45,053 bases of DNA from Escherichia phage vB_ecoS_OzMSK, in sequence record PQ659294.1; one strand, given 5' to 3'. Of the stretch, positions 4,227-44,155 are shown in pieces. Numbering within the stretch: the stretch's first letter is position 1; each line of letters starts with the position of its first letter. The notes beneath the pieces are model-generated. The model ran no database searches and was not told where the DNA came from. It was given only the letters and a program-made list of their open reading frames with translations. The position numbers and the translations under genes are program-made.

Positions 4227-4250
4227 AGCCCTCGCTTGAGGGCTTTTTTT
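4227..4250 (+). terminator. rho-independent terminator (AGCCCTCGCTTGAGGGCT + T7)
   Basis: GC hairpin followed by a T-run. Confidence 0.7.
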
Positions 4251-4270
4251 CGTCTGTAATATGGTATAAT
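4251..4270 (+). promoter_or_regulatory. sigma70-like promoter with extended -10 (TGGTATAAT) ahead of the packaging/head operon
   Basis: TGGTATAAT at 4262..4270 directly after the terminator; AAGGAGG RBS and ATG 4294 follow. Confidence 0.5.
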
Positions 4271-4293
4271 CTGACCTCAACAAAGGAGGATTT

Positions 4294-4800
4294 ATGAGCA
4301 AAGCAGCATTAAAGATTGGTGAGGGAAACTTCAAGGCGCTCTACAACAAGAAGTATGGCGATATTGCTATGGTCGCAATCAACCGTAAGTACACGCCCGA
4401 GGAGGTATTTGACTTTGCAGTGAGATACTTTTCATGGGCTGAGAATGAGGCAATCAAGGCCATTGAGACGGCTGCATTCCAGGGTGTGGTTAGCGAGAGC
4501 CTGGTTCACAAGCCTCGAGTGTTCACCTTAACTGGCCTGGCGCTATTTATGGGTGTCAATATCAATAGATTCGCTCGCTGGCGTACTGAGGCTGGTTACT
4601 CTGACGTGATGGAATTCATTGATAACGTAATTTATGAGCAGAAGTATCAGCTTGGCGTTGCAGGCATCATCAACTCCACAATCGTTGGTAAAGAGTTAGG
4701 GATTGATAAGCCGCAGGAGATTACCATTAGCAACAACTCCACAGCTAACGACGTTGATAGCATGAAGGAAGCGCTGGAGTCTGTGATTAGTAAGTTATAA
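4294..4800 (+). CDS. terminase small subunit (putative)
   Basis: 168-aa ORF immediately upstream of the large terminase; strong RBS AAGGAGG. Confidence 0.55.
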   Translation: MSKAALKIGEGNFKALYNKKYGDIAMVAINRKYTPEEVFDFAVRYFSWAENEAIKAIETAAFQGVVSESLVHKPRVFTLTGLALFMGVNINRFARWRTEAGYSDVMEFIDNVIYEQKYQLGVAGIINSTIVGKELGIDKPQEITISNNSTANDVDSMKEALESVISKL

Positions 4801-10055: not shown

Positions 10056-10079
10056 AAGCCTCCTTCGGGAGGTTTTTTT
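10056..10079 (+). terminator. rho-independent terminator (AAAGCCTCCTTCGGGAGG + T-run)
   Basis: GC hairpin with TTCG loop and T7. Confidence 0.7.
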
Positions 10080-10085
10080 ATGTCA

Positions 10086-10113
10086 TTGCGTGGGCTAAAA
10101 ACTCGTGTATAAT
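10086..10113 (+). promoter_or_regulatory. sigma70-like promoter (TTGCGT, 16 nt, TATAAT) for the major capsid gene
   Basis: Near-consensus -35/-10 hexamers with 16-nt spacer. Confidence 0.55.
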
Positions 10114-10151
10114 GAATACGTAAACACATAACTGAAAAGGAACAATAAAGA

Positions 10152-11096
10152 ATGGCCATTAAATTTGATGCAGAACAAGCAAAAATCACCGCTCACCTCG
10201 AGCAAATGGGCGTAGAAAAAGCTGATGCCGCTGGTATCTGGACCGTTAGCCAGCTCACCGCTGCTCTGAACCGTGCTTACGAAAAAGAATACGCAGAAAA
10301 CTCAGTTGTTAATATCTTCCCTGTAACAAATGAAATTCCTGGTCACGCGAAGTATTTCGAATACCCAGAGTTTGATGGTGTTGGCATTGCTCAGATTATC
10401 GCTGACTACTCTGACGATCTGCCGCTGGTTGATGCGTTTATGACCGAGAAACAAGGCAAAGTGTTCCGTTTCGGTAACGCATTCCTGATTTCTACCGATG
10501 AAATTAAAGCGGGTGCTGCAACTGGTCAGTCTCTGTCAACTCGCAAGCAGGCATTGGCTTTCGAAGCGCACGATAACTTGCTGGATAAACTGGTGTGGTC
10601 TGGTTCCACTCCTCACGGTATCGTAAGTGTATTCGATCAACCGAACATCAACAACGTTGTTGCCACTCCAAACTGGAGCGTCGCGCAGAACGCGATTAAT
10701 GACGTCACTGCGATGATTGATGCGGTTGAGAGCTCAACCCAGGGCCTACATCATGTAACTGACATTCTGCTTCCAGCTTCCGCTCGTCGAGTGATGCAGG
10801 GACTGGTTCCGCAGACAAACCTGAGTTACGGCGAATTGTTCACTCGTAACAACCCGGGTCTGACCATTCGCTTTATGCAGTTCCTGGACAACTACGATGG
10901 CGCAGGTGGCAAGGCTGCTCTGGCGTTTGAAAAGAATCCACTCAATATGTCTATTGAGATTCCAGAAGCTACTAACGTACTTCCTGGGCAGCCCAAGGAC
11001 TTGCACTTTAAGTACCCTGTAACATCAAAGGCGACGGGTTTGATCGTTTATCGTCCACTGACGATGGCTGTAATGAAAGGTATCACCTTCGCGTAA
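10152..11096 (+). CDS. major capsid protein
   Basis: 314 aa; own promoter and flanking strong terminators (high-expression context); position in head module. Confidence 0.75.
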   Translation: MAIKFDAEQAKITAHLEQMGVEKADAAGIWTVSQLTAALNRAYEKEYAENSVVNIFPVTNEIPGHAKYFEYPEFDGVGIAQIIADYSDDLPLVDAFMTEKQGKVFRFGNAFLISTDEIKAGAATGQSLSTRKQALAFEAHDNLLDKLVWSGSTPHGIVSVFDQPNINNVVATPNWSVAQNAINDVTAMIDAVESSTQGLHHVTDILLPASARRVMQGLVPQTNLSYGELFTRNNPGLTIRFMQFLDNYDGAGGKAALAFEKNPLNMSIEIPEATNVLPGQPKDLHFKYPVTSKATGLIVYRPLTMAVMKGITFA

Positions 11097-13779: not shown

Positions 13780-13784
13780 ATTGC

Positions 13785-13827
13785 ATAGCACTTTTGCTAA
13801 AGCACTTATTCAGCTTTACTGTATAGT
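13785..13827 (+). promoter_or_regulatory. degenerate class-A cassette (ATAGCACTTTTGCTAAAG, then TATAGT) driving the moron
   Basis: Variant of the inverted-repeat motif plus -10-like TATAGT and a leader resembling other cassettes. Confidence 0.4.
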
Positions 13828-13860: not shown

Positions 13861-14109
13861 ATGAATAACGTTAAAAACATCATCAAACTTGCTGCAGTTC
13901 TTGTTGCTTTTTATGCAGTAGTTCAGATTGTTAACCCAACTGGCGAGGCTGATGCCAATAGCAAGGCAAACAAATATACCGTTGAGTTCGCTAAAGCTGA
14001 GCGAGCATGCCAGGAGCTTGTGGGTAGTAAAGTTGACCAAATCATGAAATATGGCAAAGAGGTCTGCAAGGACTCAGCTGCTAAGATTGCAAAAGAAAAC
14101 ACTAAGTAA
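13861..14109 (+). CDS. small secreted or membrane-anchored protein (82 aa); moron candidate inside the tail module
   Basis: N-terminal hydrophobic segment IIKLAAVLVAFYAVVQIV; own promoter-like cassette and upstream terminator; AT-rich flank. Confidence 0.5.
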   Translation: MNNVKNIIKLAAVLVAFYAVVQIVNPTGEADANSKANKYTVEFAKAERACQELVGSKVDQIMKYGKEVCKDSAAKIAKENTK

Positions 14110-14818: not shown

Positions 14819-17797
14819 ATGGCAACAAATGAATTAGCTGGAATCACACTAGCCGTAGACGTCTCGCAGGTAGACAGAGGTACGCAGTCCCTGCAGAAGT
14901 TCAGGCAGGCAAACCAGCAAGCCGCTTCCGGCATTAGTGAGTTCGTCAATGCTGAGCAGGTTGCTAAAAACCAGGCTAGAGATACCGCTCGCGCACTTGC
15001 TGAGCAACAAGCATCTTTAGCTAAATTGCAAACGGCTATTGACCCAACTGCGGCAAAGTTCCGTAAGCTGCAAGAGGCAGCGGTGGGTCTTGATAAGGCG
15101 TTTGCTGCTGGCGTAGTTCCTGATGAGGAGTTTTTCCGCTTAGGTGAGGCACTTGAAACGCAGAACGCAAAACTTGCTCGATCACGTGCAGCGCTAACTG
15201 AAGAGGGTAGGGCAGCAGCTCAAGCCGCAAAGGATAAGGCAAAGGCAAAGGCTGAAGCTGATAGGTTCATTGCGTCACTTGAGCGTCAGGCTCAGGCGGC
15301 AACATTGACGCGTGAGGAGTACTTAAAATTACAGGCTGCTCAGCTTGGCGTAAGTTCTCAGGCAGCGCCTATTATTGACAGAATCGCCGATGCATCACAG
15401 AAGGCAAACACCCAGCTAATTGCTCAGAGCAAGGCATTTCAACGCTCTGGATTAAGCGCGGGTCAATACAAGGCTGCAATCTCTCAATTGCCAGCGCAGA
15501 TTACAGACATTGGGACATCACTTGCTGGCGGCATTCCGATTTGGCTTATTGCAATTCAGCAAGGCGGGCAAATTAAGGATGCATTTGGAGGTATTGGTAA
15601 CACCTTTAGATTCGCGCTAGCAGCCTTAAATCCATTCAATGTTGCTGTTGGGGTTTTGGGTGGCGCGCTTGTTGCTCTAGGTATCGGTGCTGCCCAGGCA
15701 GAGAGTGAATTCAGAGCATTAAATTCTGCCATTGCGTTCTCAAACAACTCCACAATCGCATCAATCTCGCAGGTTAGAGATTTGGTTAGCTCTGTTTCTG
15801 ATGCTACTGATGCAACCAGAGGACTTGTGACTAGCATCGCAACAAGCCTTATTGAGCAAGGGAACCTTACGCTGACGCAGATTGACAAGATTACTAAATC
15901 TACCGCCAGATGGGCGCAGTTGACAGGTAAGGATGCAAAGGAAATTACTGGTTACTATAACCAGATTGCGAGCGACCCAATTCAAGGACTTGCTGATTTA
16001 GACAAGAGGTTTAACTTCCTTACACAGGGGCAGTTAACAACAATTGAAAGATTGAGAGAGACTAGGGGTGAGGTTGAAGCCGTAACTGCTGCTATTGATA
16101 TATTTAGCAAATCACAGGAGGCAAACCTTAACGATATTGCAGCCCAGCTTACTCCTCTTGAATTGGCCTGGAATGACTTCAGGAAGTACATATCTGATGT
16201 ATGGGATGCAATTAGTCGCAGAACGGTTGGGGCGCTAAACCTGTTTGTTGACGTAATCGCCGGAACAATTGAGCAAATTAGGGTCTTCATCAACCAGGGT
16301 GATGTGCTGATTGGTGAATTCGTAATTAGCGCAACACAGGCACTGCAGAACATCCCCGGCCTTGATGGTGTTGGTGATGATGTTATCAAGGGGCAGCAGA
16401 AGATTATCGATGCAGCTAAGAAGCAAAACATTGAGCTAGAGAAGTCTATCAAGGAGCGCGATGCCAGAATCAGAGAAGGAGAACTTGGTTACGTTACTCG
16501 CAGAGAAAATCAGAATACCAATGAGCAGTCAGGCACTGATGAGGAGTTTGCAAAAAGGAAGAAAGCACTTCAGGATGAACTTGATGCGATCAAGAAGAAC
16601 AGGAAAGAAGAAAATGGTAGGGTTAAAGAGCAAAGAGACCTTACAATTGGTTACGAATCTGGCGTACTTGCACTACAGGCACAACTCAAGGTGCTTCAGG
16701 AAAACAGGGATATTGGCGCAGTAATAAGCAATGAGCGCAAGCAGTATCTTCAGGAGGAGGCTAAATTCAGGATTCTTGAGCAGAGGCAACTTGATGGCTC
16801 AATTACCAAAGAGCAAGCAAGGCTTCTAATTGAAAAGGATAAAGTTCTTGCACTCGCAAGGCAGAAAGCTGAGTTAGGCGATCAGATTGTTTTGCAGGAG
16901 CGCGCCAATAAGTTAGCTGAAGATAACCGCAAGAAGATTCTTCAGATTAACAACGAAGCAAGCAATATTAATTTGGGGGCTGGTTTGTCATCTCGCGAGC
17001 AGCAGAGGGCAAGAGAGATTCAGGCTCTCCAGTCCAATCAGGTTAATGCTGGTGGCTCTCTTGATGATTTTGATTTTCAGCAATTACTGGAAGCAAGAAA
17101 GGAATACTACAAGCAGGAGGATAATCTTAGGTCTGATTGGCAAGCTGGCGTAACATCAACGCTTGCAGACTTGGCTGAGAAATATACAGACTACAATCAG
17201 ATAGCTAAGGATTTAACTGTTGCGGCATTCGATGGAATTACAGACCAGATTACAAACCTTGTAACCACTGGTGAGACCAACTTCAGGGAGTTCACCGCAA
17301 ACATCCTCAAAATGATTGCGAAGATTGCAACTCAGTTACTTTTGGTTAAGGCCATCGAATCAACATTGACTAGTTTTGGTGGTGGAGGAGGTAACGCGTT
17401 TGGCTCAATTGCTTCCGGGTTAGGTTTCGCTGGTGGCGGCTACACTGGTGATGGTGGAAAATATCAGCCAGCAGGAACGGTACACCGAGGTGAGTTTGTA
17501 TTCACAAAAGAAGCGACAAGCAGAATTGGTGTGAAAAACCTTTACGCACTAATGAAAGGTTACGCGAATGGCGGTGTTGTTGGTGGCCCTTCTGGTTATG
17601 CGAATGGTGGATTGGTTTCTGGAGGCGCAGATGTTAATGTTAGCGGGATTACTGTTAGCGTTAATAGTGGGATTGGAAGCAACCCAGAGCAGGCCAAGGC
17701 GCTGCAAAATGGCGTTAAGGCAATCGTAGCTGAAGAGATTGCTCAGTCATTCCAGCAGGGGGGCAGAGCTTATCAGTACCTTCGCGGATTCAACTAA
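14819..17797 (+). CDS. tail tape measure protein
   Basis: 992 aa; long Ala/Gln/Glu-rich predicted coiled coil, hydrophobic central segment, Gly-rich C-terminus; precedes M-L-K-I-J. Confidence 0.9.
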   Translation: MATNELAGITLAVDVSQVDRGTQSLQKFRQANQQAASGISEFVNAEQVAKNQARDTARALAEQQASLAKLQTAIDPTAAKFRKLQEAAVGLDKAFAAGVVPDEEFFRLGEALETQNAKLARSRAALTEEGRAAAQAAKDKAKAKAEADRFIASLERQAQAATLTREEYLKLQAAQLGVSSQAAPIIDRIADASQKANTQLIAQSKAFQRSGLSAGQYKAAISQLPAQITDIGTSLAGGIPIWLIAIQQGGQIKDAFGGIGNTFRFALAALNPFNVAVGVLGGALVALGIGAAQAESEFRALNSAIAFSNNSTIASISQVRDLVSSVSDATDATRGLVTSIATSLIEQGNLTLTQIDKITKSTARWAQLTGKDAKEITGYYNQIASDPIQGLADLDKRFNFLTQGQLTTIERLRETRGEVEAVTAAIDIFSKSQEANLNDIAAQLTPLELAWNDFRKYISDVWDAISRRTVGALNLFVDVIAGTIEQIRVFINQGDVLIGEFVISATQALQNIPGLDGVGDDVIKGQQKIIDAAKKQNIELEKSIKERDARIREGELGYVTRRENQNTNEQSGTDEEFAKRKKALQDELDAIKKNRKEENGRVKEQRDLTIGYESGVLALQAQLKVLQENRDIGAVISNERKQYLQEEAKFRILEQRQLDGSITKEQARLLIEKDKVLALARQKAELGDQIVLQERANKLAEDNRKKILQINNEASNINLGAGLSSREQQRAREIQALQSNQVNAGGSLDDFDFQQLLEARKEYYKQEDNLRSDWQAGVTSTLADLAEKYTDYNQIAKDLTVAAFDGITDQITNLVTTGETNFREFTANILKMIAKIATQLLLVKAIESTLTSFGGGGGNAFGSIASGLGFAGGGYTGDGGKYQPAGTVHRGEFVFTKEATSRIGVKNLYALMKGYANGGVVGGPSGYANGGLVSGGADVNVSGITVSVNSGIGSNPEQAKALQNGVKAIVAEEIAQSFQQGGRAYQYLRGFN

Positions 17798-18217: not shown

Positions 18218-18973
18218 ATGCTAAGTTCAAAGTTTGAAAATCAGTTGCAAAGCCTTTTCCCTGGCGAGATTGTGACGCTAATCCAGGTTGACGGAACCTC
18301 CTTCGGAAGTCTCGTTTACAACTTCCACAATGAGAACATTTCATACACGCCAGAAGAGATTATGATGGCTCAAATGAATGGCGAGCCACTACCAGAGAAG
18401 ACTATTACATTTCGTGGTGAAGAGTATGGCCCCAGACCTTTTGGTATCTCGGGCATCAATATGACCTCTGACGGCAAGGCCAACAAAGTTACGCTAACAG
18501 TATCAAACGTAGACCAGCGAATTAGCGCATTGATTCGAACATACAACGGACTTGTTAAAGCTAAGGTTACCATCTGGATTACTACGCGAGACAACATCAA
18601 CGAAGATGGAAGCATTGCTGATGGGGACTATCGCAGATTTGTTTACTTCATTGAGCGACCGAAGCAGGTTGATTACAAAACCGCATCATTTGAGCTAAGT
18701 AGCCCAATGGATATGGATGGCATTTACATCCCAGCGAGACCTGTTCAGTCTGTTTGCTATTTCGCCTCTAGGGGCTGGTATCGAAGTGGTAATGGTTGCA
18801 CCTATGCTGGTAATAGATATTTCGACAAGGATGATAATCCAGTGGCGGACCCTTCATTAGACTTCTGTGCGGGGACTGTCAATAGCTGCAAAATCAGGTT
18901 TGGTGAGAATAATCAGTTAGATTTCGGCGGTTGCGCTGCCGCAAGCCTTCAGGCTAAAGCCAACCAGAGTTAA
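18218..18973 (+). CDS. minor tail protein (lambda L-like)
   Basis: ATG 18218 with GGAG RBS; Cys-containing C-terminal region; synteny M-L-K-I-J. Confidence 0.7.
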   Translation: MLSSKFENQLQSLFPGEIVTLIQVDGTSFGSLVYNFHNENISYTPEEIMMAQMNGEPLPEKTITFRGEEYGPRPFGISGINMTSDGKANKVTLTVSNVDQRISALIRTYNGLVKAKVTIWITTRDNINEDGSIADGDYRRFVYFIERPKQVDYKTASFELSSPMDMDGIYIPARPVQSVCYFASRGWYRSGNGCTYAGNRYFDKDDNPVADPSLDFCAGTVNSCKIRFGENNQLDFGGCAAASLQAKANQS

Positions 18974-25839: not shown

Positions 25840-26150
25840 TACGCGTAATCGATGTAACTCGATGTATACAATTTCATCCGCGGAAAATGGTATACGCGCT
25901 GTTACGCCAATTTACGCATTAGTTACATTGAAATATCTATATATATCAACCTTTTACTCTTATTATTATTATTATACATATTACTGTGTATATCATGTAA
26001 CTACTTCTATAGAGCGTTCCGGTTATAATTTTAATATCATGTGGATTTATACAGTATTGCGTGGCAGCTATACTAATGCACCCCCTGCAAGAAACGGTAT
26101 ACACGATATACACGATGGTTACATTTAGCTATAGCTGGGATGAGATGCCA
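25840..26150. repeat. AT-rich repeat region with palindromes (TACGCGTA, GTATAC) and (TTA)n; diverged copy of window region ~120..460
   Basis: Shared blocks ACGCA(A/T)TGGTTACAT...ATATCTATATATATCAACC...TTATTATTATTAT and GGTTACATT(G/T)AGCTATA(T/G)CTGGG in both regions. Confidence 0.6.
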
Positions 26151-26297
26151 TTTTACGTAACAAGTGGCAATGCCTACACGGAATTACAATGATTCGCACG
26201 TAAACTTAAATCAACGATTGGCAAAACCAATTGGACTGGTTACCGTGCTGAATATATAGTTAACCCATCTAAAGCAAACAACCAGAGAGATACAGAA

Positions 26298-28847: not shown

Positions 28848-31298
28848 TTAATAAATATTTACATCTGGAGAAATTCCAACGCAAGTCCAGCGCGAGAACT
28901 TGGCATCATAAACGAATGACATTCCAATTTGTCTCCCCTCAGATGGAGTTGTGAATGAGCCAACTCTAAACTTATTGCTAAATGAAACGGATGGACGCCG
29001 GCCGCCTGAAAGGTTGTAAATTATGAAGTCTATCCTCTGTGCATCTCTTGCGTTATCCTGAACATCAATAACTACAGGACTTGAATCAATTACAACGGTT
29101 GCAAGACTTGTTCTTAGTGGGTTAAATAGAATACTACCACCAGATAGCTGAACCCTTTTTTGAACGGGGTTAGAAGAATCCGTGTACAACCCTGTGTTTA
29201 TATTATACAAAGCCTCCCATGAATTCAGTTTTGAGTCATCAATCACTGTTGCATGCTGCCCAAATAGTATAGTCCCTTCTACATGGTTTCCTGAAGCTCC
29301 ATTATAAAAATCAAAACCAGAAGCTGATCCACCAACAAACCTATTAGCTCTAGCTCCGTTAACTTGAATTGATGGAGACTGAAAACCTGACTTCAGGCCA
29401 TTGAACAAGTTTCCTGTCGCCGTCTTCCTAAGAACGACGTCACCACCAGAGTTGACCTCAAGGTCGCAACCAATAACAGTGTTAGTTACTGCTGTTATGC
29501 CTAGGTCTGACTCATGACCGAAAGAAAACCCATACTTATTTCCCTCGCTGGTTCCACCAATAAATGTCGTATTACTGCAGAATGTAGCCTCAATTCCTGA
29601 TTCTGTTACATGCTCGCAAGTTGGGTTAATAAAAAGATCTGCAGATGTGCCGCGGAAGTTCACAGCGCCAGCCTCTGCGTCAATTAATATGCCGTACGTA
29701 GGCGTCGTTGTGAAGGTCTCAACGTTACCAGAGCACACAAAGTTATTATGCACGCATAGCTGAGTCCACCAGCAGTGTAAACCAGCCCTTCTAATGTTCG
29801 TAGCCATTAGGTTGTCAAAGCATGATGATATGACACCCCTTAATGAAAAGCCATCACTAGCATACCCATTCCCATCGACAATGATGTTGCTCATATATGA
29901 GTTGTATGCCCAATAATCTAGGTTTACATCCCTATGATCCATTTGGATGACGTAATCATGAGGTCCGCTAGTTAGTGAGATTCTTGCGCCTTTCTCACCG
30001 ATAATTGTTGCTGGCCTCAGAAAGTTTAATGGCTGAGATGTAAGATAATTACCTTTAGGAATATGTATAGCAATAGCGTTGTTTCTAGATGCCTCAACAG
30101 CGGCAAGCAATGCCTGAGTATCATCTGTTACACCATCACCAACAGCGCCAAAGTCCTTCTTAATATCGACATGAGTAAGTAAAGCGTTTACCTCTGGCTT
30201 TGAGTAAACATCAAGATTTGTTCTTGCTGCTGACTTATTTGCAACATCAGAGAAATTCAATGATTTTTGAAAAGTCTCATTTTTTGAATAAACATCAAGA
30301 TTTGTTCTTGCTTCTGACTTATTTGCAACATCAGAGAAATTCAATGATTTTTGAAAAGTCTCATTTTTTGAATAAACATCAAGTAAGTTTCTAGCCCTCG
30401 ATGCCGTAGCTCCACCTCCGGACTTGCCAGCCTCAACCATCACCATTTCCCTACCTGGTGCATAAACCCTGCTTCCGGGCGCTCCCACAAACTGAATGTA
30501 AATCTCCCTGCTATACTGGTTGCTTGTTGAAGATTGGCCTACAACTCGCAAGGAGTGCGTGGTTGTATTGCTTGACTTTGATATTACCTGAATGCATAAA
30601 GCAGCAATTGATGTTCCAAATGTTGAGATTATGTCATTTGGAGCATTTATCATTGATGAAACGTTAACCATATAAAGGCCACCGGATTTAAAAACAAATT
30701 CCTGCCAATCAAAATTGCTTATCAATGGCGTAGTGTCTGTCGCCAATCCATATCCGGCAAGAGTTACCAACGTTCCGGCATCCCCGGCGTTATTAATTGC
30801 TTTAATCGTCTGATCTCTTGCTGCAGTGGTCGTGTCTCTTGCACTAATAGCAGTAGCGGCGCTCTCTTCGGCAGCAATCTGGCTAGCAAGAGCCTCAGCA
30901 GCTCCAGTGGTGGATTGTTTTGCAAGCTGCTCGAAGAGAGGCCAGTCGAAAGTGTCTTGACCAATAAATTGCAACAATCCTTCGATTGATGTCTCCTTTG
31001 ACTGGTAGTAACGCAAAGTCTCTGCTACATCCTGAGCCAACCCCTGAACGGTAATTCCATCGTGCGCAAGAATTGCATAACCAGTTCCGGAAGGAACAGT
31101 TTCAGAGTTAGGGTTGTAAACATTAATCTGAGTATCGCTGATGATTTCAGAGATGGTATAAATCTTCAGGGGGCTGGTTTTAAAAATAATGGTTGCACCT
31201 ACGCGAATAAGTGTAAGCGGTGCTTTCCATGTTGTACCCACGCCAGTTACCTCGCCATTTGCGGCCAGCGACGCTGTTCCTAAGTCATAAATTGCCAT
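28848..31298 (-). CDS. lateral tail fibre / tailspike with right-handed beta-helix (pectate-lyase-like) domain
   Basis: 816 aa from ATG 31298 (GGAG RBS); motif DIKKDFGAVGDGVTDDTQAL typical of pectate-lyase-type tailspikes; internal 28-aa tandem repeats. Confidence 0.75.
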   Translation of the reverse strand: MAIYDLGTASLAANGEVTGVGTTWKAPLTLIRVGATIIFKTSPLKIYTISEIISDTQINVYNPNSETVPSGTGYAILAHDGITVQGLAQDVAETLRYYQSKETSIEGLLQFIGQDTFDWPLFEQLAKQSTTGAAEALASQIAAEESAATAISARDTTTAARDQTIKAINNAGDAGTLVTLAGYGLATDTTPLISNFDWQEFVFKSGGLYMVNVSSMINAPNDIISTFGTSIAALCIQVISKSSNTTTHSLRVVGQSSTSNQYSREIYIQFVGAPGSRVYAPGREMVMVEAGKSGGGATASRARNLLDVYSKNETFQKSLNFSDVANKSEARTNLDVYSKNETFQKSLNFSDVANKSAARTNLDVYSKPEVNALLTHVDIKKDFGAVGDGVTDDTQALLAAVEASRNNAIAIHIPKGNYLTSQPLNFLRPATIIGEKGARISLTSGPHDYVIQMDHRDVNLDYWAYNSYMSNIIVDGNGYASDGFSLRGVISSCFDNLMATNIRRAGLHCWWTQLCVHNNFVCSGNVETFTTTPTYGILIDAEAGAVNFRGTSADLFINPTCEHVTESGIEATFCSNTTFIGGTSEGNKYGFSFGHESDLGITAVTNTVIGCDLEVNSGGDVVLRKTATGNLFNGLKSGFQSPSIQVNGARANRFVGGSASGFDFYNGASGNHVEGTILFGQHATVIDDSKLNSWEALYNINTGLYTDSSNPVQKRVQLSGGSILFNPLRTSLATVVIDSSPVVIDVQDNARDAQRIDFIIYNLSGGRRPSVSFSNKFRVGSFTTPSEGRQIGMSFVYDAKFSRWTCVGISPDVNIY
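30199..30385. repeat. 84-bp direct tandem repeat (two copies plus a partial third) inside the tail fibre gene
   Basis: AAACATCAAG recurs at 30206, 30290 and 30374; copies differ at about one position; encodes ARTNLDVYSKNETFQKSLNFSDVANKSE twice. Confidence 0.85.
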
Positions 31299-31318
31299 TG
31301 TGTAAATTCTCCATTTGT

Positions 31319-31338
31319 AAAATAGCACGAATTGCTAA
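31319..31338 (+). promoter_or_regulatory. class-A motif copy in plus orientation, 21 nt upstream of the minus-strand tail fibre start
   Basis: AAATAGCACGAATTGCTAAG; the only copy oriented against the adjacent downstream gene. Confidence 0.4.
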
Positions 31339-31363
31339 GTTGGATTGTAGCATCTTTCAGGCA

Positions 31364-31386
31364 TAAAAAAACCTCCCAAAGGAGGT
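31364..31386 (-). terminator. rho-independent terminator for the primase transcript
   Basis: Minus strand reads AACCTCCTTTGGGAGGTTTTTTT. Confidence 0.65.
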
Positions 31387-32312
31387 TAGTCTATTAATTC
31401 GCTTGCTTTGTATATTCGCTTTCTTATGCCAGACTTGAAAAAATTATCATCATTTGGCATTACAACATCAAGATTGCGATCATCAGCAACGGCAAGTAAA
31501 TCAAAAGAGTGGCGAGTACAAGCGACGCGTAACTTGTAGTTTCTAAGCGCATAAGCAACCATTTCCATGTTGTAGCTGGAGTGGCAAACAAGCACGCAGC
31601 GGTTGCCACTAGCAAGATGAACGCGAACACCATCAATCCAATTATCGACCAGATAAGCGTACTCACTATCCTTAAAGGCACCAATAACAGCCACAGATTG
31701 GCGAGTATAATCTTTTGCAGCATAACTAACATCTCCCTCTTCATTTATAAAAATTACATTGCACATCTCATCTGACACGCCGTCACTATAAGCCATAAAG
31801 CACGGCACTGCGTGTATTAGTTCACCAGATTTAGCCCTACCAACATCAAAGCCGAACTCGCTATAGATACCCTCGTATATACTGAGTGGAGTTGATTCTA
31901 CTCTTTCCGTCCTTCCCATTATCTCTAAGCATCTTTCGTGGTCAATCTGAGCGCCCATTTTGTATGGTGATGTTCTTGAAGCTCTTTTGTTTGCTTTTGA
32001 TATAACCTCTACTGGAACTAGATTCAGCCAATCACCAAGCGTATCTATTGTTTCACTATAACTCATTCCGGAACACTTCATTACCCAACCAACACCAGAA
32101 TCATTTCCGCACTGGTTGCATATTGCTGCGCCATTTCCCTTTTCCTGACCTAACTCATCAGTGAAGCGAAACCTATCCCTTCCAAAGCAGTAAGGGCACG
32201 GACCATGTTTCTTGCTGAGATTCTCCTTTGTCCATCCAAGGTGCGATGAGTAGAAATCACTCCACATTCCCTTCATTTTTGCTATCACTTCGTTCTTATC
32301 ATGGTGACTCAT
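31386..32312 (-). CDS. DNA primase (zinc-binding)
   Basis: Cys-rich N-terminal segment CPYC...CNQC (GPCPYCFGRDRF...AICNQCGN); ATG 32312 with GGAGG RBS. Confidence 0.65.
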   Translation of the reverse strand: MSHHDKNEVIAKMKGMWSDFYSSHLGWTKENLSKKHGPCPYCFGRDRFRFTDELGQEKGNGAAICNQCGNDSGVGWVMKCSGMSYSETIDTLGDWLNLVPVEVISKANKRASRTSPYKMGAQIDHERCLEIMGRTERVESTPLSIYEGIYSEFGFDVGRAKSGELIHAVPCFMAYSDGVSDEMCNVIFINEEGDVSYAAKDYTRQSVAVIGAFKDSEYAYLVDNWIDGVRVHLASGNRCVLVCHSSYNMEMVAYALRNYKLRVACTRHSFDLLAVADDRNLDVVMPNDDNFFKSGIRKRIYKASELID

Positions 32313-32337: not shown

Positions 32338-32383
32338 ACTATACACAATGTATAGCGCCACTGTTTATCAATTCGTGCTATTT
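32338..32383 (-). promoter_or_regulatory. class-A promoter-like cassette upstream of primase
   Basis: Minus-strand AAATAGCACGAATTGATAAA then TATAGT; motif overlaps the stop of the upstream gene. Confidence 0.5.
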
Positions 32384-32860
32384 CCCTTGCTCTTTAGCTT
32401 TTCGCGCTGCCTCGTTAGCGGCCTTAATCTTGCGCCATGATCGACACTCTGTCTTGGTGGCTAATTCAGCCTCAGTAACAACACGCAGCATGTGACGCTT
32501 TTTGCAACGAAGAGTTAGCGGCTTCCCGTTACCGTCGAATTGCAAATCTGGTCGGCAGAATGTGGCGCGAAAACCTTCTCCATTTCGCTTGTAGTAGTTG
32601 TGCGACAGCTGGGCGCCACGTGCCGATATCATGCCGCGCTTAAACCATTGTTCTACAGCCTGTGGTGTTACCTTTAACTGCTTTGCGATATTCGCCTTTG
32701 TGCCGAAGAAATCAAGAACTATCTCCAGGCGTGCCCGTAACCCTGCTCTTACTTCATCCTTTAAAACGTAGTAACCTGAAGGTCGTTTACGTTGCTTTTT
32801 GTCTTCAGTGCGGATAGTTCCGTTGTTGCCGTTAATGGTTCTCTTGTCGACTGTATTCAT
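32378..32860 (-). CDS. putative DNA-binding protein (160 aa, basic, HTH-like segment)
   Basis: Highly basic; segment IAKQLKVTPQAVEQWFKRG resembles a helix-turn-helix. Confidence 0.4.
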   Translation of the reverse strand: MNTVDKRTINGNNGTIRTEDKKQRKRPSGYYVLKDEVRAGLRARLEIVLDFFGTKANIAKQLKVTPQAVEQWFKRGMISARGAQLSHNYYKRNGEGFRATFCRPDLQFDGNGKPLTLRCKKRHMLRVVTEAELATKTECRSWRKIKAANEAARKAKEQGK

Positions 32861-32961
32861 CTTATTACCTCAATAGCATTTTTTGTTAAAAGTAATTCTG
32901 ATTTGATGTTAGTATTGTACTTAATTGAACGCTACAAGACAATTTTTATAGGAGTTTAGAT

Positions 32962-35412: not shown

Positions 35413-35576
35413 CAACTCATCGAAACGAAACACTCACAAAAAAGGTGAGAAGTTGCAAACGTAGGCCGGAGCAACGAAAGACGTTTCAAAATATGATGTG
35501 ACAAACCCATGAGAAAGGAAGTTGCAAACGTAGGCCGGAGCAACGAAAATCACATCATAATAAATTATAACTTAGT
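35413..35576 (+). ncRNA. candidate small non-coding RNA or iteron region with two copies of a 29-bp element
   Basis: AGTTGCAAACGTAGGCCGGAGCAACGAAA at 35451..35479 and 35520..35548; each is an inverted repeat GTTGC..GCAAC around GGCCGG; no ORF longer than 8 codons. Confidence 0.3.
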
Positions 35577-38059: not shown

Positions 38060-38133
38060 ATAGTACTTTTTGTTAATAAAGCCTCAAAGGATTGAGGCAA
38101 AATGAATAAACGATAAAGAGATGAGGAATTGTA

Positions 38134-39755: not shown

Positions 39756-40241
39756 ATGAAGCAGAAGCTGCTAATTGGCGCGGCTACGGCTGCGGCGATA
39801 TACATCGCAGCGCCGCTTGTTGAGCTCGTTGAGGGTGTGGAGAATAATCCTTACATGGACATTGCCGGAATCCCTACGGTATGTTCCGGTATTACTGGAC
39901 CTGATGTTGTTTGGGGTAAGACTTACAGCAATAGGGAGTGCCGGAACCTACTGGAGAAGCACATCCAGATTCATGCTAAGTATGTTCAGGATGCGGTTAC
40001 TTACCCAATTGCACAGCAGACAAGGGCAGCGTTAATTAGCTTTAGCTACAACGTTGGTGGTCATGCCATGAAGAACTCAACGGCAGTTCGACTTATCAAC
40101 CAGGGTAAAGTGGAGCAGGGTTGCAAGGCTCTCGGAATGTGGAATAAGGCTACCGTTAATGGAAAAAAGGTTGTCGTTAAGGGTTTGGTGAATCGCAGGA
40201 ATGAGGAGATTAAGTTATGCTTAAGCGGATTGCAGCGTTAG
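39756..40241 (+). CDS. endolysin, T4-lysozyme-like (GH24) with probable N-terminal SAR signal-anchor
   Basis: Catalytic-triad spacing E-x8-D-x5-T (ELVEGVENNPYMDIAGIPTVCSGIT); Ala/Gly-rich weakly hydrophobic N-terminus LLIGAATAAAIYIAAPLV. Confidence 0.75.
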   Translation: MKQKLLIGAATAAAIYIAAPLVELVEGVENNPYMDIAGIPTVCSGITGPDVVWGKTYSNRECRNLLEKHIQIHAKYVQDAVTYPIAQQTRAALISFSYNVGGHAMKNSTAVRLINQGKVEQGCKALGMWNKATVNGKKVVVKGLVNRRNEEIKLCLSGLQR

Positions 40242-40848: not shown

Positions 40849-40931
40849 TTTATATACTCCTGTCTTAATATTATTTTCGGGTTGGCTTTTAAGCACCCGC
40901 GCTTCGATGGATTAATAATAGCAAAAGCCCT

Positions 40932-40955
40932 CTAGGGGCTTTTAACAAAAAGGGC
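40932..40955 (-). terminator. terminator-like hairpin (AAAAGCCCCTAGAGGGCTTTT)
   Basis: GC hairpin with flanking T-run on the minus strand. Confidence 0.5.
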
Positions 40956-40958
40956 TAT

Positions 40959-41383: not shown

Positions 41384-42967
41384 TCACCCCAGCAGTCGTG
41401 GATTAATGTAAACTTTATCACCAATCAGGCACGTATAGTTTTTCTCATCAAGCATTGGTAGTAAGTGGTCTTTAATCTTCGTCATTACTCCCGCTTGACC
41501 CTCGAACGGCTTAACCTTGCGAGCAGCTTCATATAGAGACCGGATGCCTACTACGCCTTTCCCATTTTTTACTTGCTTAATCAGAATATCAATCAGCTTA
41601 TTCATCTCTGCATTGTCGCCAGCGTGACCCGCAGCGTTGGCAGATGACAAATAAGTCTTGCTAAGTTCCTGGAACATAATTACAGCTTCCTGCATTGTAT
41701 CAAGCTCAATTTCTCTCGACTTCTGAGGGCTACCGCCATTTGGGTTGAACCAGTTACGCACAGTGTGAAGAACCGCCGCAATCCTGATTGCCTGCTTATC
41801 GAACTTACCCAACGCGCCTCGCAACATTGTGTGTGAATACTTCCCGCCGTCAGCAAGGTGCGGTTCCATTTCCTGACGAGCGCGGTTGAGATATTTCATT
41901 GCTGAATTACTAACTGTCAACTTAACTTCTTGCTCATTCATTATCTCGTGAACTAAACGGAAGTAATCAGCCTTCAACCCGGCATCAATTGGCTCATAAG
42001 TCGATTCGCCATTTTCATCAACGAATACACGCTCGCCCAGGAGTGACTTTTCACGTACAAGCAGGAAACGCTCAGATACACCGATACCACGCGCGCCAGC
42101 GTTCATGATAGCGTTGATTGTCTCATCCTGCGCAATTACAGAGATGCAACCCATAGCTACGAAGCTCATGTTGTTTTCAGCGTTAGCACGAGCGATAGAT
42201 ACGTTGCCAGCATCCCATGCCTTCAGTACAAGCTCGCTGTTCGTTTTCTTTGATCCGTCACCATAGGTCATGCCAAGTAGTGAGTTTACACTCGTTGCCT
42301 CATCCGAGATTACTGCAAAGTTACCCTGACGATTGTTTATTCGCGCAAGACCTTCCGGTGTGGTATCTGAAACCGGGAAAACGATATCGCATAGTTTCTC
42401 GAGCTTTTCCTCAAGATCTTCTTTCTCCTCAAAAAGCGATTTCATCTCAGATGGTGACTTTTCCTGCTTCATCTCTTTGGATAACGCAGATAGTTTAGCC
42501 ATAATCTTTTTGCGCTCGCGCTTTCGAACTTCATTCAGTCGCTGAGTCTCGGCAATCATTGGCGCAATAGAAAGTGAGTTAATTGCTGATTTACCAGTCG
42601 ATGGTGGCTGACTCGTTACGACGTAAAGCGAGGTTGGCTGCTGAGTTCCGTGATACTCTACGGTAAAACGTCCAAGCATGGCAGCGGAAATACACCCCAG
42701 GAAGTGCATGTATGCGGACGACTCCGGGAATTGCACGCTCCGAGCAATGTTAGCTGACAGCTTACCAACAACATCAATATCATTTCCGAGTGATATTACA
42801 GGGTACTTATCATTTGCCGCATCAATCTCGACAGGAGCCTTCCAGAATGATTGAGACTGGCGATAGCCATTTGCATTAATAGCGACGCGCAAAGGTGGAA
42901 GGTTGTCTGCGGCAGCAATTGCCATAACCTGTTCAACAGATAGTTTATCTTCGTTGAAATCAAACAT
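41384..42967 (-). CDS. P-loop NTPase of unknown function (527 aa; possible replication-associated ATPase)
   Basis: Walker A-like PPSTGKS and Walker B-like AVISDE; GGAGAG RBS; N- and C-termini are paralogous to the remnant at 1093..1512. Confidence 0.55.
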   Translation of the reverse strand: MFDFNEDKLSVEQVMAIAAADNLPPLRVAINANGYRQSQSFWKAPVEIDAANDKYPVISLGNDIDVVGKLSANIARSVQFPESSAYMHFLGCISAAMLGRFTVEYHGTQQPTSLYVVTSQPPSTGKSAINSLSIAPMIAETQRLNEVRKRERKKIMAKLSALSKEMKQEKSPSEMKSLFEEKEDLEEKLEKLCDIVFPVSDTTPEGLARINNRQGNFAVISDEATSVNSLLGMTYGDGSKKTNSELVLKAWDAGNVSIARANAENNMSFVAMGCISVIAQDETINAIMNAGARGIGVSERFLLVREKSLLGERVFVDENGESTYEPIDAGLKADYFRLVHEIMNEQEVKLTVSNSAMKYLNRARQEMEPHLADGGKYSHTMLRGALGKFDKQAIRIAAVLHTVRNWFNPNGGSPQKSREIELDTMQEAVIMFQELSKTYLSSANAAGHAGDNAEMNKLIDILIKQVKNGKGVVGIRSLYEAARKVKPFEGQAGVMTKIKDHLLPMLDEKNYTCLIGDKVYINPRLLG

Positions 42968-44109: not shown

Positions 44110-44155
44110 AATATACAGGAAAAGCCCCTGAAGGGTTTTAGCAATTCGTGCTATT
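44110..44155 (-). promoter_or_regulatory. class-A promoter-like cassette with an embedded hairpin
   Basis: Minus-strand AATAGCACGAATTGCTAAA, then CCCTTCAGGGG hairpin, then TATATT. Confidence 0.45.

Follow-up and report, generated by a model that had tools for sequence, protein, structure and literature searches.

Phage TLS, re-annotated in 2024, carries a 21-nt direct repeat with the consensus aaATAGCACnnnTTGnTAAAA in 21 places, of which 18 are listed (PMC11447400). These repeats fall into three spacer classes (GAA, TTT and AAA), are described as running with transcription, with start codons about 76 nt downstream, and also occur in T1, Rtp and Rogue1 (PMC11447400). Stoperators, enhancer-binding sites or UP elements were suggested by the TLS authors without data, the function of the repeat being left open (PMC11447400). 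Beyond the TLS paper, a literature search returned no transcript map, characterised regulator, footprint or binding study for T1-like phages.

The DNA analysed here (the window) is a stretch of 45,053 nucleotides from Escherichia phage vB_ecoS_OzMSK (PQ659294.1), a T1/Rtp-like siphophage genome of the Drexlerviridae whose closest annotated relatives are Rtp-like and T1-like. Phage Msk (MW057918.1) matches the 4.2-kb stretch around positions 31319-31338 at 99.9% over its full length, and the name Msk is used below for this genome. In this part of the genome, the minus strand carries in order a regulator gene, the primase gene, an intrinsic terminator and a fibre gene which is stranded inside the replication module. 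The features of the fibre locus are the following:

28848-31298, minus strand: gene of an 816-aa lateral tail fibre or tailspike protein that has a pectate-lyase-like domain (Pfam PF12708, E 4e-12; relatives carry the annotation tail fibre or lateral tail fibre)
31309-31312, minus strand: GGAG ribosome-binding site of the fibre gene, 10 nt upstream of the ATG (from the sequence)
31319-31338, plus strand: reversed copy of the T1-family 21-nt repeat, AAAATAGCACGAATTGCTAA (exact match to the family consensus)
31336-31337, minus strand: predicted start of the fibre mRNA, 7-8 nt past the -10 hexamer and inside the motif (standard sigma-70 geometry)
31344-31352, minus strand: extended -10 element TGCTACAAT of a predicted sigma-70 fibre promoter (from the sequence; 14 of 15 relatives, Sf12 included, have TGnTAnAAT at this location)
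31362-31387, minus strand: intrinsic terminator of the primase gene, with its stem at 31370-31387 and its T-run at 31362-31369 (terminator scan; kept in relatives)
31386-32312, minus strand: DNA primase gene (Pfam Zn_Ribbon_Prim, E 8e-12)

The fibre gene was taken to start at the ATG 31298-31296 on the minus strand and not at the GTG 31328 where the open reading frame mechanically begins, because relatives annotate proteins starting with MAIY or MALY from this ATG. Fibre genes are mosaic, more distant phages sharing just the N-terminal part and the upstream region. Within the coding sequence, an 84-nt tandem duplication (30199-30366, 98% identical) is in frame and adds 28 residues.

The motif at 31319-31338 is intergenic, between the primase and fibre genes which both lie on the minus strand, and its dyad core is TAGCA-CGAAT-TGCTA (31323-31337). 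The original prediction had placed a plus-oriented copy beside the minus-strand fibre gene, 21 nt upstream of its start and next to the primase terminator; this description is borne out, since AAAATAGCACGAATTGCTAA is found there exactly and the motif is separated by 20 nt from the ATG and by 23 nt from the end of the terminator T-run. The sequence AAAATAGCACGAATTGCTAAG fits all upper-case positions of aaATAGCACnnnTTGnTAAAA except the final two A's, where it reads A, then G. The reversed copy is identical at 19 of 21 positions to the TLS repeats DR2, DR5, DR13 and DR15 (aaatagcacgaattgctaaaa), which are likewise intergenic and from a member of the Drexlerviridae. Unlike the TLS repeats, it points the opposite way and lies 20 nt from an ATG, and a -10 box is missing from its 3' side.

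A chance occurrence was ruled out, as the 20-mer AAAATAGCACGAATTGCTAA has 11 matches with up to three mismatches on both strands of the genome when 0.01 are expected from shuffles. The looser pattern ATAGCAN5TGNTAA gives 17 matches for 1.27 expected, all but one of them (16/17) at gene boundaries. All other copies of this genome (15 good ones and a shortened one) do point toward the gene that they precede, as originally claimed. The copy at 31319-31338, its neighbours on either side being both on the minus strand, is the sole one among the 16 good copies and the short-spacer copy to point away from the neighbouring gene, a count that is limited to the present genome as T1 has additional reversed copies in its late region. 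T1 copies running against the surrounding genes are located at 15070-15086, 18834-18850 and 104-120, all on the minus strand; one of the opposing T1 copies occurs before the major head protein gene and another 22 nt before the ATG of gp40, past the terminator of the major tail protein gene. In TLS, repeat DR7 (15024-15044, negative strand) sits in the plus-strand structural region.

At the normally oriented copies (the 15 other good copies and the shortened one), the start of a gene on the same strand is found ca. 60-90 nt downstream, and all three spacer classes (GAA, TTT and AAA) are represented in the genome. A TATnAT -10 box follows these copies at 22-23 nt, with neither a -35 hexamer at 16-18 nt nor a TG extension. 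When 59 copies from Msk, T1 and Rtp were considered together, the consensus 3' of the motif was TATAATTACCnCATCGAAAC / AAnnnnAnnnnAGnnATnnGnTATAATTACCnCATCGAAACnAAA, and TAnnnT was found exactly 22 nt after TTGnTA in 39 of them and at 23 nt in most others. The primase gene provides an example, with a normally oriented copy at 32365-32384 (minus strand) followed after 22 nt by TATAGT. With the A of CATCGA, 7 nt past the hexamer, taken as the transcription start, the 15-bp core would span -49 to -35 with its centre at -42. This core, TAGCA-N5-TGnTA, forms an imperfect inverted repeat of 5 bp whose half-sites are centred 10 bp from each other, and could suit a dimeric helix-turn-helix protein. 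Complementarity is kept at four of the five half-site positions in at least 53 of the 59 copies, and the conserved flanking and spacer positions are asymmetric: the C at core position 7 and the T at position 11 are complementary in a single copy out of 59, and the A's of the outer flanks in none (0/59). From the strict spacing, the missing -35 box and the dyad near -42, we infer that the motif is an activator site of the class II type at the normal promoters. A UP element or a -35 box read by the host polymerase was also considered and can probably be discarded, TTGCTA being 22 nt from the -10 box, which is too far, and a GC-containing dyad being unlike a UP element.

Several other observations were made on the motif promoters. 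The sequence CATCGAAACGA is conserved ca. 7 nt after the -10 box, at the predicted start of most motif promoters of Msk, T1 and Rtp (e.g. 35417-35427), and is absent at the fibre promoter. The copy with a 1-nt-shorter spacer (13783-13799, ATAGCACTTTTGCTAA) is followed by TATAGT and CATCTAAACG; it occurs just after the terminator of the major tail protein gene and precedes a gene start at 13861. In several cases, terminators and normal motif promoters are interleaved: the 22-nt spacer between motif and -10 box contains the hairpin that terminates the preceding gene at 40916-40958, 44110-44154 and 38060-38110, as well as at 39976-40030 and 41956-42010 in T1. Elsewhere in the genome, two long non-coding regions (150-570 and 25840-26240) form a diverged duplicate with a mean identity of 67%; their near-identical blocks include ATATCTATATATATCAACC, a (TTA)n run and TGGTTACATTnAGCTATAnCTGGG, and the regions could correspond to origin-like regions or to early promoter clusters.

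The situation at the fibre gene is different from that of the normal promoters. On the minus strand, the terminator is followed in order by TTTTTTTATGCCTGAAAGA, the extended -10 element TGCTACAAT, CCAAC, TTAGCAATTCGTGCTATTTT, ACAAATGGAGAATTTACACA and the ATG. Extended -10 elements are of a type that does not need a -35 box. On the fibre strand, the motif begins 5 nt downstream of the TGCTACAAT hexamer (6 nt in T1) so that, with standard geometry, it would cover about -1 to +19 of the predicted start; it falls in the polymerase footprint (-10 to about +20) of the predicted promoter. Its TTGCTAA end faces the fibre -10 element, the same as at every normal promoter. A class II arrangement is found on neither strand: the plus strand offers no -10 box at the required spacing and, on the minus strand, the place 30 nt from the dyad centre where a -10 box would be needed is taken by the start codon, for which reason an activator site at -42 of the fibre gene itself was rejected. 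Genome-wide, TGnTAnAAT is not enriched (12 matches for 9.85 expected), and the weight of the fibre -10 box therefore comes from its position and conservation. A third half-site within the extended -10 element (TGCTA) was discarded since it is not conserved, relatives reading TGATA or TGGTA.

Two further loci bear on whether this promoter depends on the motif. In Sf12 (Rogunavirinae), TGATACAAT is kept at the fibre gene and the motif is absent, and the small terminase gene of the present genome has a layout like that of the fibre gene, with a terminator and TGGTATAAT, again without the motif. Both cases suggest that the fibre promoter is independent of the motif, and the terminase layout points to a class of self-sufficient promoters of which the fibre promoter would be a member with the motif added. 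In T1, the fibre promoter reads TTGCAA-17-TGATAAAAT, i.e. it has a -35 box at 17 nt besides the -10 element. Terminators directly followed by a motif-less sigma-70-type promoter were found at both the small terminase and the major capsid genes (TTGCGT...TATAAT for the latter), at 4229-4297 and 10059-10152.

Conservation of the layout was assessed in 15 relatives that were obtained by BLAST of the region, T1 and TLS being added by accession, and none of which was picked for the motif. In 13 of them (Msk, G8, Rtp, DTL, ETEP102, AugustePiccard, phiA2-1, Rao1, TH21, LF82-11, HazelMika, NBD2 and T1), the same succession occurs: terminator, TGnTAnAAT, 5-6 nt, reversed motif, 20-24 nt that include the ribosome-binding site, and ATG. 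These phages span the Braunvirinae (Rtp-like), the Tunavirinae (T1), Vilniusvirus and Nouzillyvirus. TLS has another sigma-70-like promoter at its fibre gene and no copy of the motif there. An exact-pattern scan further detected the composite in 18 IMG/VR contigs of 46-52 kb, once per genome and always with a terminator on one side and the fibre ATG on the other. Mean pairwise identity among nine non-redundant phages was 0.93 for the motif and 0.81 for the extended -10 element, both values being pattern-anchored and hence partly circular, and, in the same pattern-anchored alignment, 0.36 for the 5-nt gap between the two, 0.42 for the 12 nt upstream and 0.49 for the 17 nt after the motif. By this measure, conservation is concentrated in the motif and the extended -10 element. 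The anatomy of the fibre locus and its conservation are direct observations. The repeat family has already been described, and what appears to be new is that a copy is kept over the predicted start of the lateral tail fibre promoter; in the only published account (TLS, 2024), all copies are described as pointing with transcription, from which this conserved, operator-like copy departs.

The original prediction had proposed an orientation-independent operator for the fibre gene. The operator idea is in line with the anatomy, as the motif occurs between the extended -10 element and the ribosome-binding site and is kept there in T1, Rtp and other genera; orientation independence is not apparent from the sequence, in which asymmetric positions are conserved and the TTGCTAA end faces the -10 element. 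We give an even chance to the reading in which the protein specific for the T1-family repeat also binds the reversed copy, there in the position of an operator, and thereby lowers fibre transcription. At the ca. 15 other sites, the protein bound near -42 would most likely recruit the host RNA polymerase in a class II manner. At the fibre gene, the bound protein would cover the start and either compete with RNA polymerase or block its escape, so that transcription would be lowered or delayed. Placement at the fibre gene compared with normal placement implies that a motif-binding protein would act both ways, depending on the position of its site: if so, the same protein-site pair would raise transcription at -42 and lower it at +8. 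We infer the activity of the promoter, its start site, the identity of the binder and the sign of the effect from the layout described above. Among the points that speak against this operator model, repression of a structural gene by the factor that activates most other phage promoters would be puzzling, and both TLS and Sf12 manage without the reversed copy.

The alternative that survives best, which we regard as unlikely, is that the site is bound with an effect other than simple repression, the polymerase being held, a loop being formed to the copy of the primase promoter, or read-through being blocked. The TTGCTAA end faces the -10 box here as it faces the polymerase at normal promoters, and the second copy at 32365-32384 lies 1046 bp upstream on the same transcription unit. 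The p4 protein of phage phi29, which represses one promoter by keeping the polymerase in place there, provides a precedent for the first of these effects. The sequence does not, however, separate any of the three from plain occlusion, and no sign of higher oligomers of the regulator was seen.

In another reading, rather improbable in our view, the copy has no regulatory role and is the relic of a plus-strand promoter or a recombination boundary used in exchanges of the fibre module. The mosaic nature of the fibre genes, the possibility that repeats at gene boundaries serve as crossover points and the lack of a copy in TLS and Sf12 would all be in line with such an origin. A relic or a boundary nevertheless fits poorly with the sharp conservation of the motif (identity of 0.93 versus 0.36-0.49 in the adjoining nucleotides) and with distances that are fixed across subfamilies, at 5-6 nt to the -10 box and 20-24 nt to the ATG.

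The motif might also act as RNA. With the predicted start inside the motif, the fibre mRNA would begin with (U)AGCAAUUCGUGCUA, which can form a hairpin of 4-5 bp at the 5' end that might stabilise the message or modulate translation. This hairpin is weak, however (-2.4 to -3.8 kcal/mol). It disappears in Rao1 with no compensating change, and the TTGATAA variant of that phage is one that normal DNA sites also accept; the full leader prefers another fold and is not unusually stable (z = -1.08), no Rfam match with E up to 1 was found in 30800-31900, and the other copies occur upstream of the start, outside the transcript of the promoter concerned. Taken together, a role in the RNA appears highly improbable.

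The plus strand was examined for the antisense RNA that had been put forward, a short transcript entering the primase gene from its 3' end, i.e. for a promoter activated from the reversed copy whose RNA would run through the terminator hairpin. No plus-strand gene follows the copy, and a small plus-strand ORF past the motif was rejected as just a 25-codon frame devoid of a ribosome-binding site. The copy is a full motif in plus orientation with the correct asymmetry, and a weak CATAAA, which reads TATAAA in DTL, is present 24 nt after TTGCTA. Against this, the plus strand has no TATnAT at 22-23 nt and no CATCGAAAC start region, the hexamer at the canonical 22 nt is GGCATA, CATAAA is without the essential final T, T1 reads TACCTG, which is not -10-like, in the corresponding place, the A-run is accounted for by the terminator of the other strand, and neither a ribosome-binding site nor a plausible ORF follows. 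Scored with a position weight matrix for the promoter core, the sequence on the plus side of the reversed copy reaches -24.7 in Msk and that of the equivalent Rtp copy -27.2, when the leave-one-out median of normal copies is +18.9 and random genome positions have a mean of -19.2. Spacing, hexamer quality, core score and the lack of conservation in T1 thus leave the antisense promoter unsupported, and we consider it extremely improbable.

To return to a protein bound at the operator position, the likely binder would be the phage's own Cro-like regulator, whose gene lies ca. 1 kb from the reversed fibre copy. The features of this second locus are the following:

32378-32860, minus strand: 160-aa regulator with a Cro-like helix-turn-helix, of the T1 gp23 / Rtp52 family, candidate motif binder (Pfam P22_Cro, E 6.7e-7, just under the curated cut-off; phrog_2856, E 6e-84)
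32873-32889, plus strand: TTT-type copy of the motif, ATAGCATTTTTTGTTAA, which serves the divergent helicase promoter (from the sequence)
32914-32942, minus strand: sigma-70-type promoter of the regulator gene, TTGTCT-17-TACAAT (promoter scan and sequence)

The P22 Cro-like helix-turn-helix corresponds to residues 48-72 of the regulator, and phrog_2856 is labelled 'transcriptional regulator'. In the AlphaFold model (mean pLDDT 87.5, built on 29 sequences), the helical core has its best matches with the all-alpha Cro proteins of Xfaso 1, N15 and P22, with TM scores of ca. 0.65-0.73 (target-normalised) and weak E values of 0.04 to 2, and controller (C) proteins are found among the weaker structural matches. 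A sequence search against solved structures gave a marginal match with P22 Cro alone. The 113 homologues that were detected are encoded on contigs of Drexlerviridae size. We regard the Cro-like regulator as a plausible candidate for the motif binder. Within the family, the recognition helix is variable, whereas the motif is near-constant and an N-terminal D-K-R-x-x-N-G-N-N-G-T-x-R segment is invariant, so that the binder could be another protein or another part of the regulator, such as the N-terminal arm. A C-terminal F-C-R-P-D-x-x-F-D-x-N-G-K segment is conserved as well.

The promoter of the regulator gene fires toward the TTT-type copy 32873-32889, which is located at ca. +15 to +37 of the predicted regulator start. 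An equal arrangement with the motif is found at the regulator gene of T1, where the promoter is TTGAAT-17-TATAAT, and at that of TLS, with promoter P57 and repeat DR11. The regulator and fibre genes have in common a self-sufficient promoter with a motif copy on its downstream side, and in both cases the TTGnTAA end faces the -10 box. The presence of a copy downstream of its own sigma-70 promoter suggests that the regulator is autoregulated. Over the whole interval 32861-32961, the promoters of the regulator and helicase genes are oriented toward one another beside one TTT-type copy, and their -10 boxes overlap; T1 and TLS share this organisation, which resembles a small autoregulated switch.

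A broader proposal, which we put forward tentatively and hold to be somewhat doubtful, is that a single Cro-like protein may run the whole transcription programme, as a class II activator at ca. 15 promoters that have no -35 box and as a repressor at the lateral tail fibre promoter and at its own. If this were true, the reversed fibre copy would be a built-in negative arm of the circuit, and fibre synthesis could be timed or limited relative to that of the other virion genes. The proposal would bear on how T1, a classical T phage, orders its gene expression with the host RNA polymerase alone. The function of the repeat also bears on the annotation of promoters in T1-like phages that are sequenced for therapy or as fermentation contaminants.

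As with the stoperators of phage L5 (gp71 sites), a parallel raised by the TLS authors (PMC11447400), the T1-family copies are many short, asymmetric and intergenic sites whose orientation tracks transcription. L5 stoperators differ in that they are the sites of a lysogenic repressor and are scattered through transcribed regions, with promoters at variable distances, whereas a strict 22-23 nt separates the T1-family copies from the -10 box, and the orientation of the 31319-31338 copy is opposite to that of the others. The fibre locus itself may be likened to lac O1, centred at +11, and to the lambdoid Cro/CI operators, where a short dyad lies over a sigma-70 start, as the imperfect dyad of the motif does over the predicted fibre start, with a phage Cro-like protein as the candidate binder here. 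Unlike these, it belongs to a virulent phage with no lysogeny switch, its site is reused ca. 15 times at -42 in what resembles an activator position, and its operator is a predicted one. Finally, the two-way behaviour proposed for the motif would recall lambda CI at OR2/PRM, phi29 p4, Mu Mor and C, and the controller (C) proteins of restriction-modification systems. The Msk regulator is distinguished from them by its additional N- and C-terminal parts and its confinement to Drexlerviridae-like contigs, and the likeness would be one of logic only, with no membership by sequence: like these proteins, which activate promoters without a -35 box from near -42 and repress when their site overlaps the polymerase footprint, the motif-binding protein would owe the sign of its effect to the position of its site.
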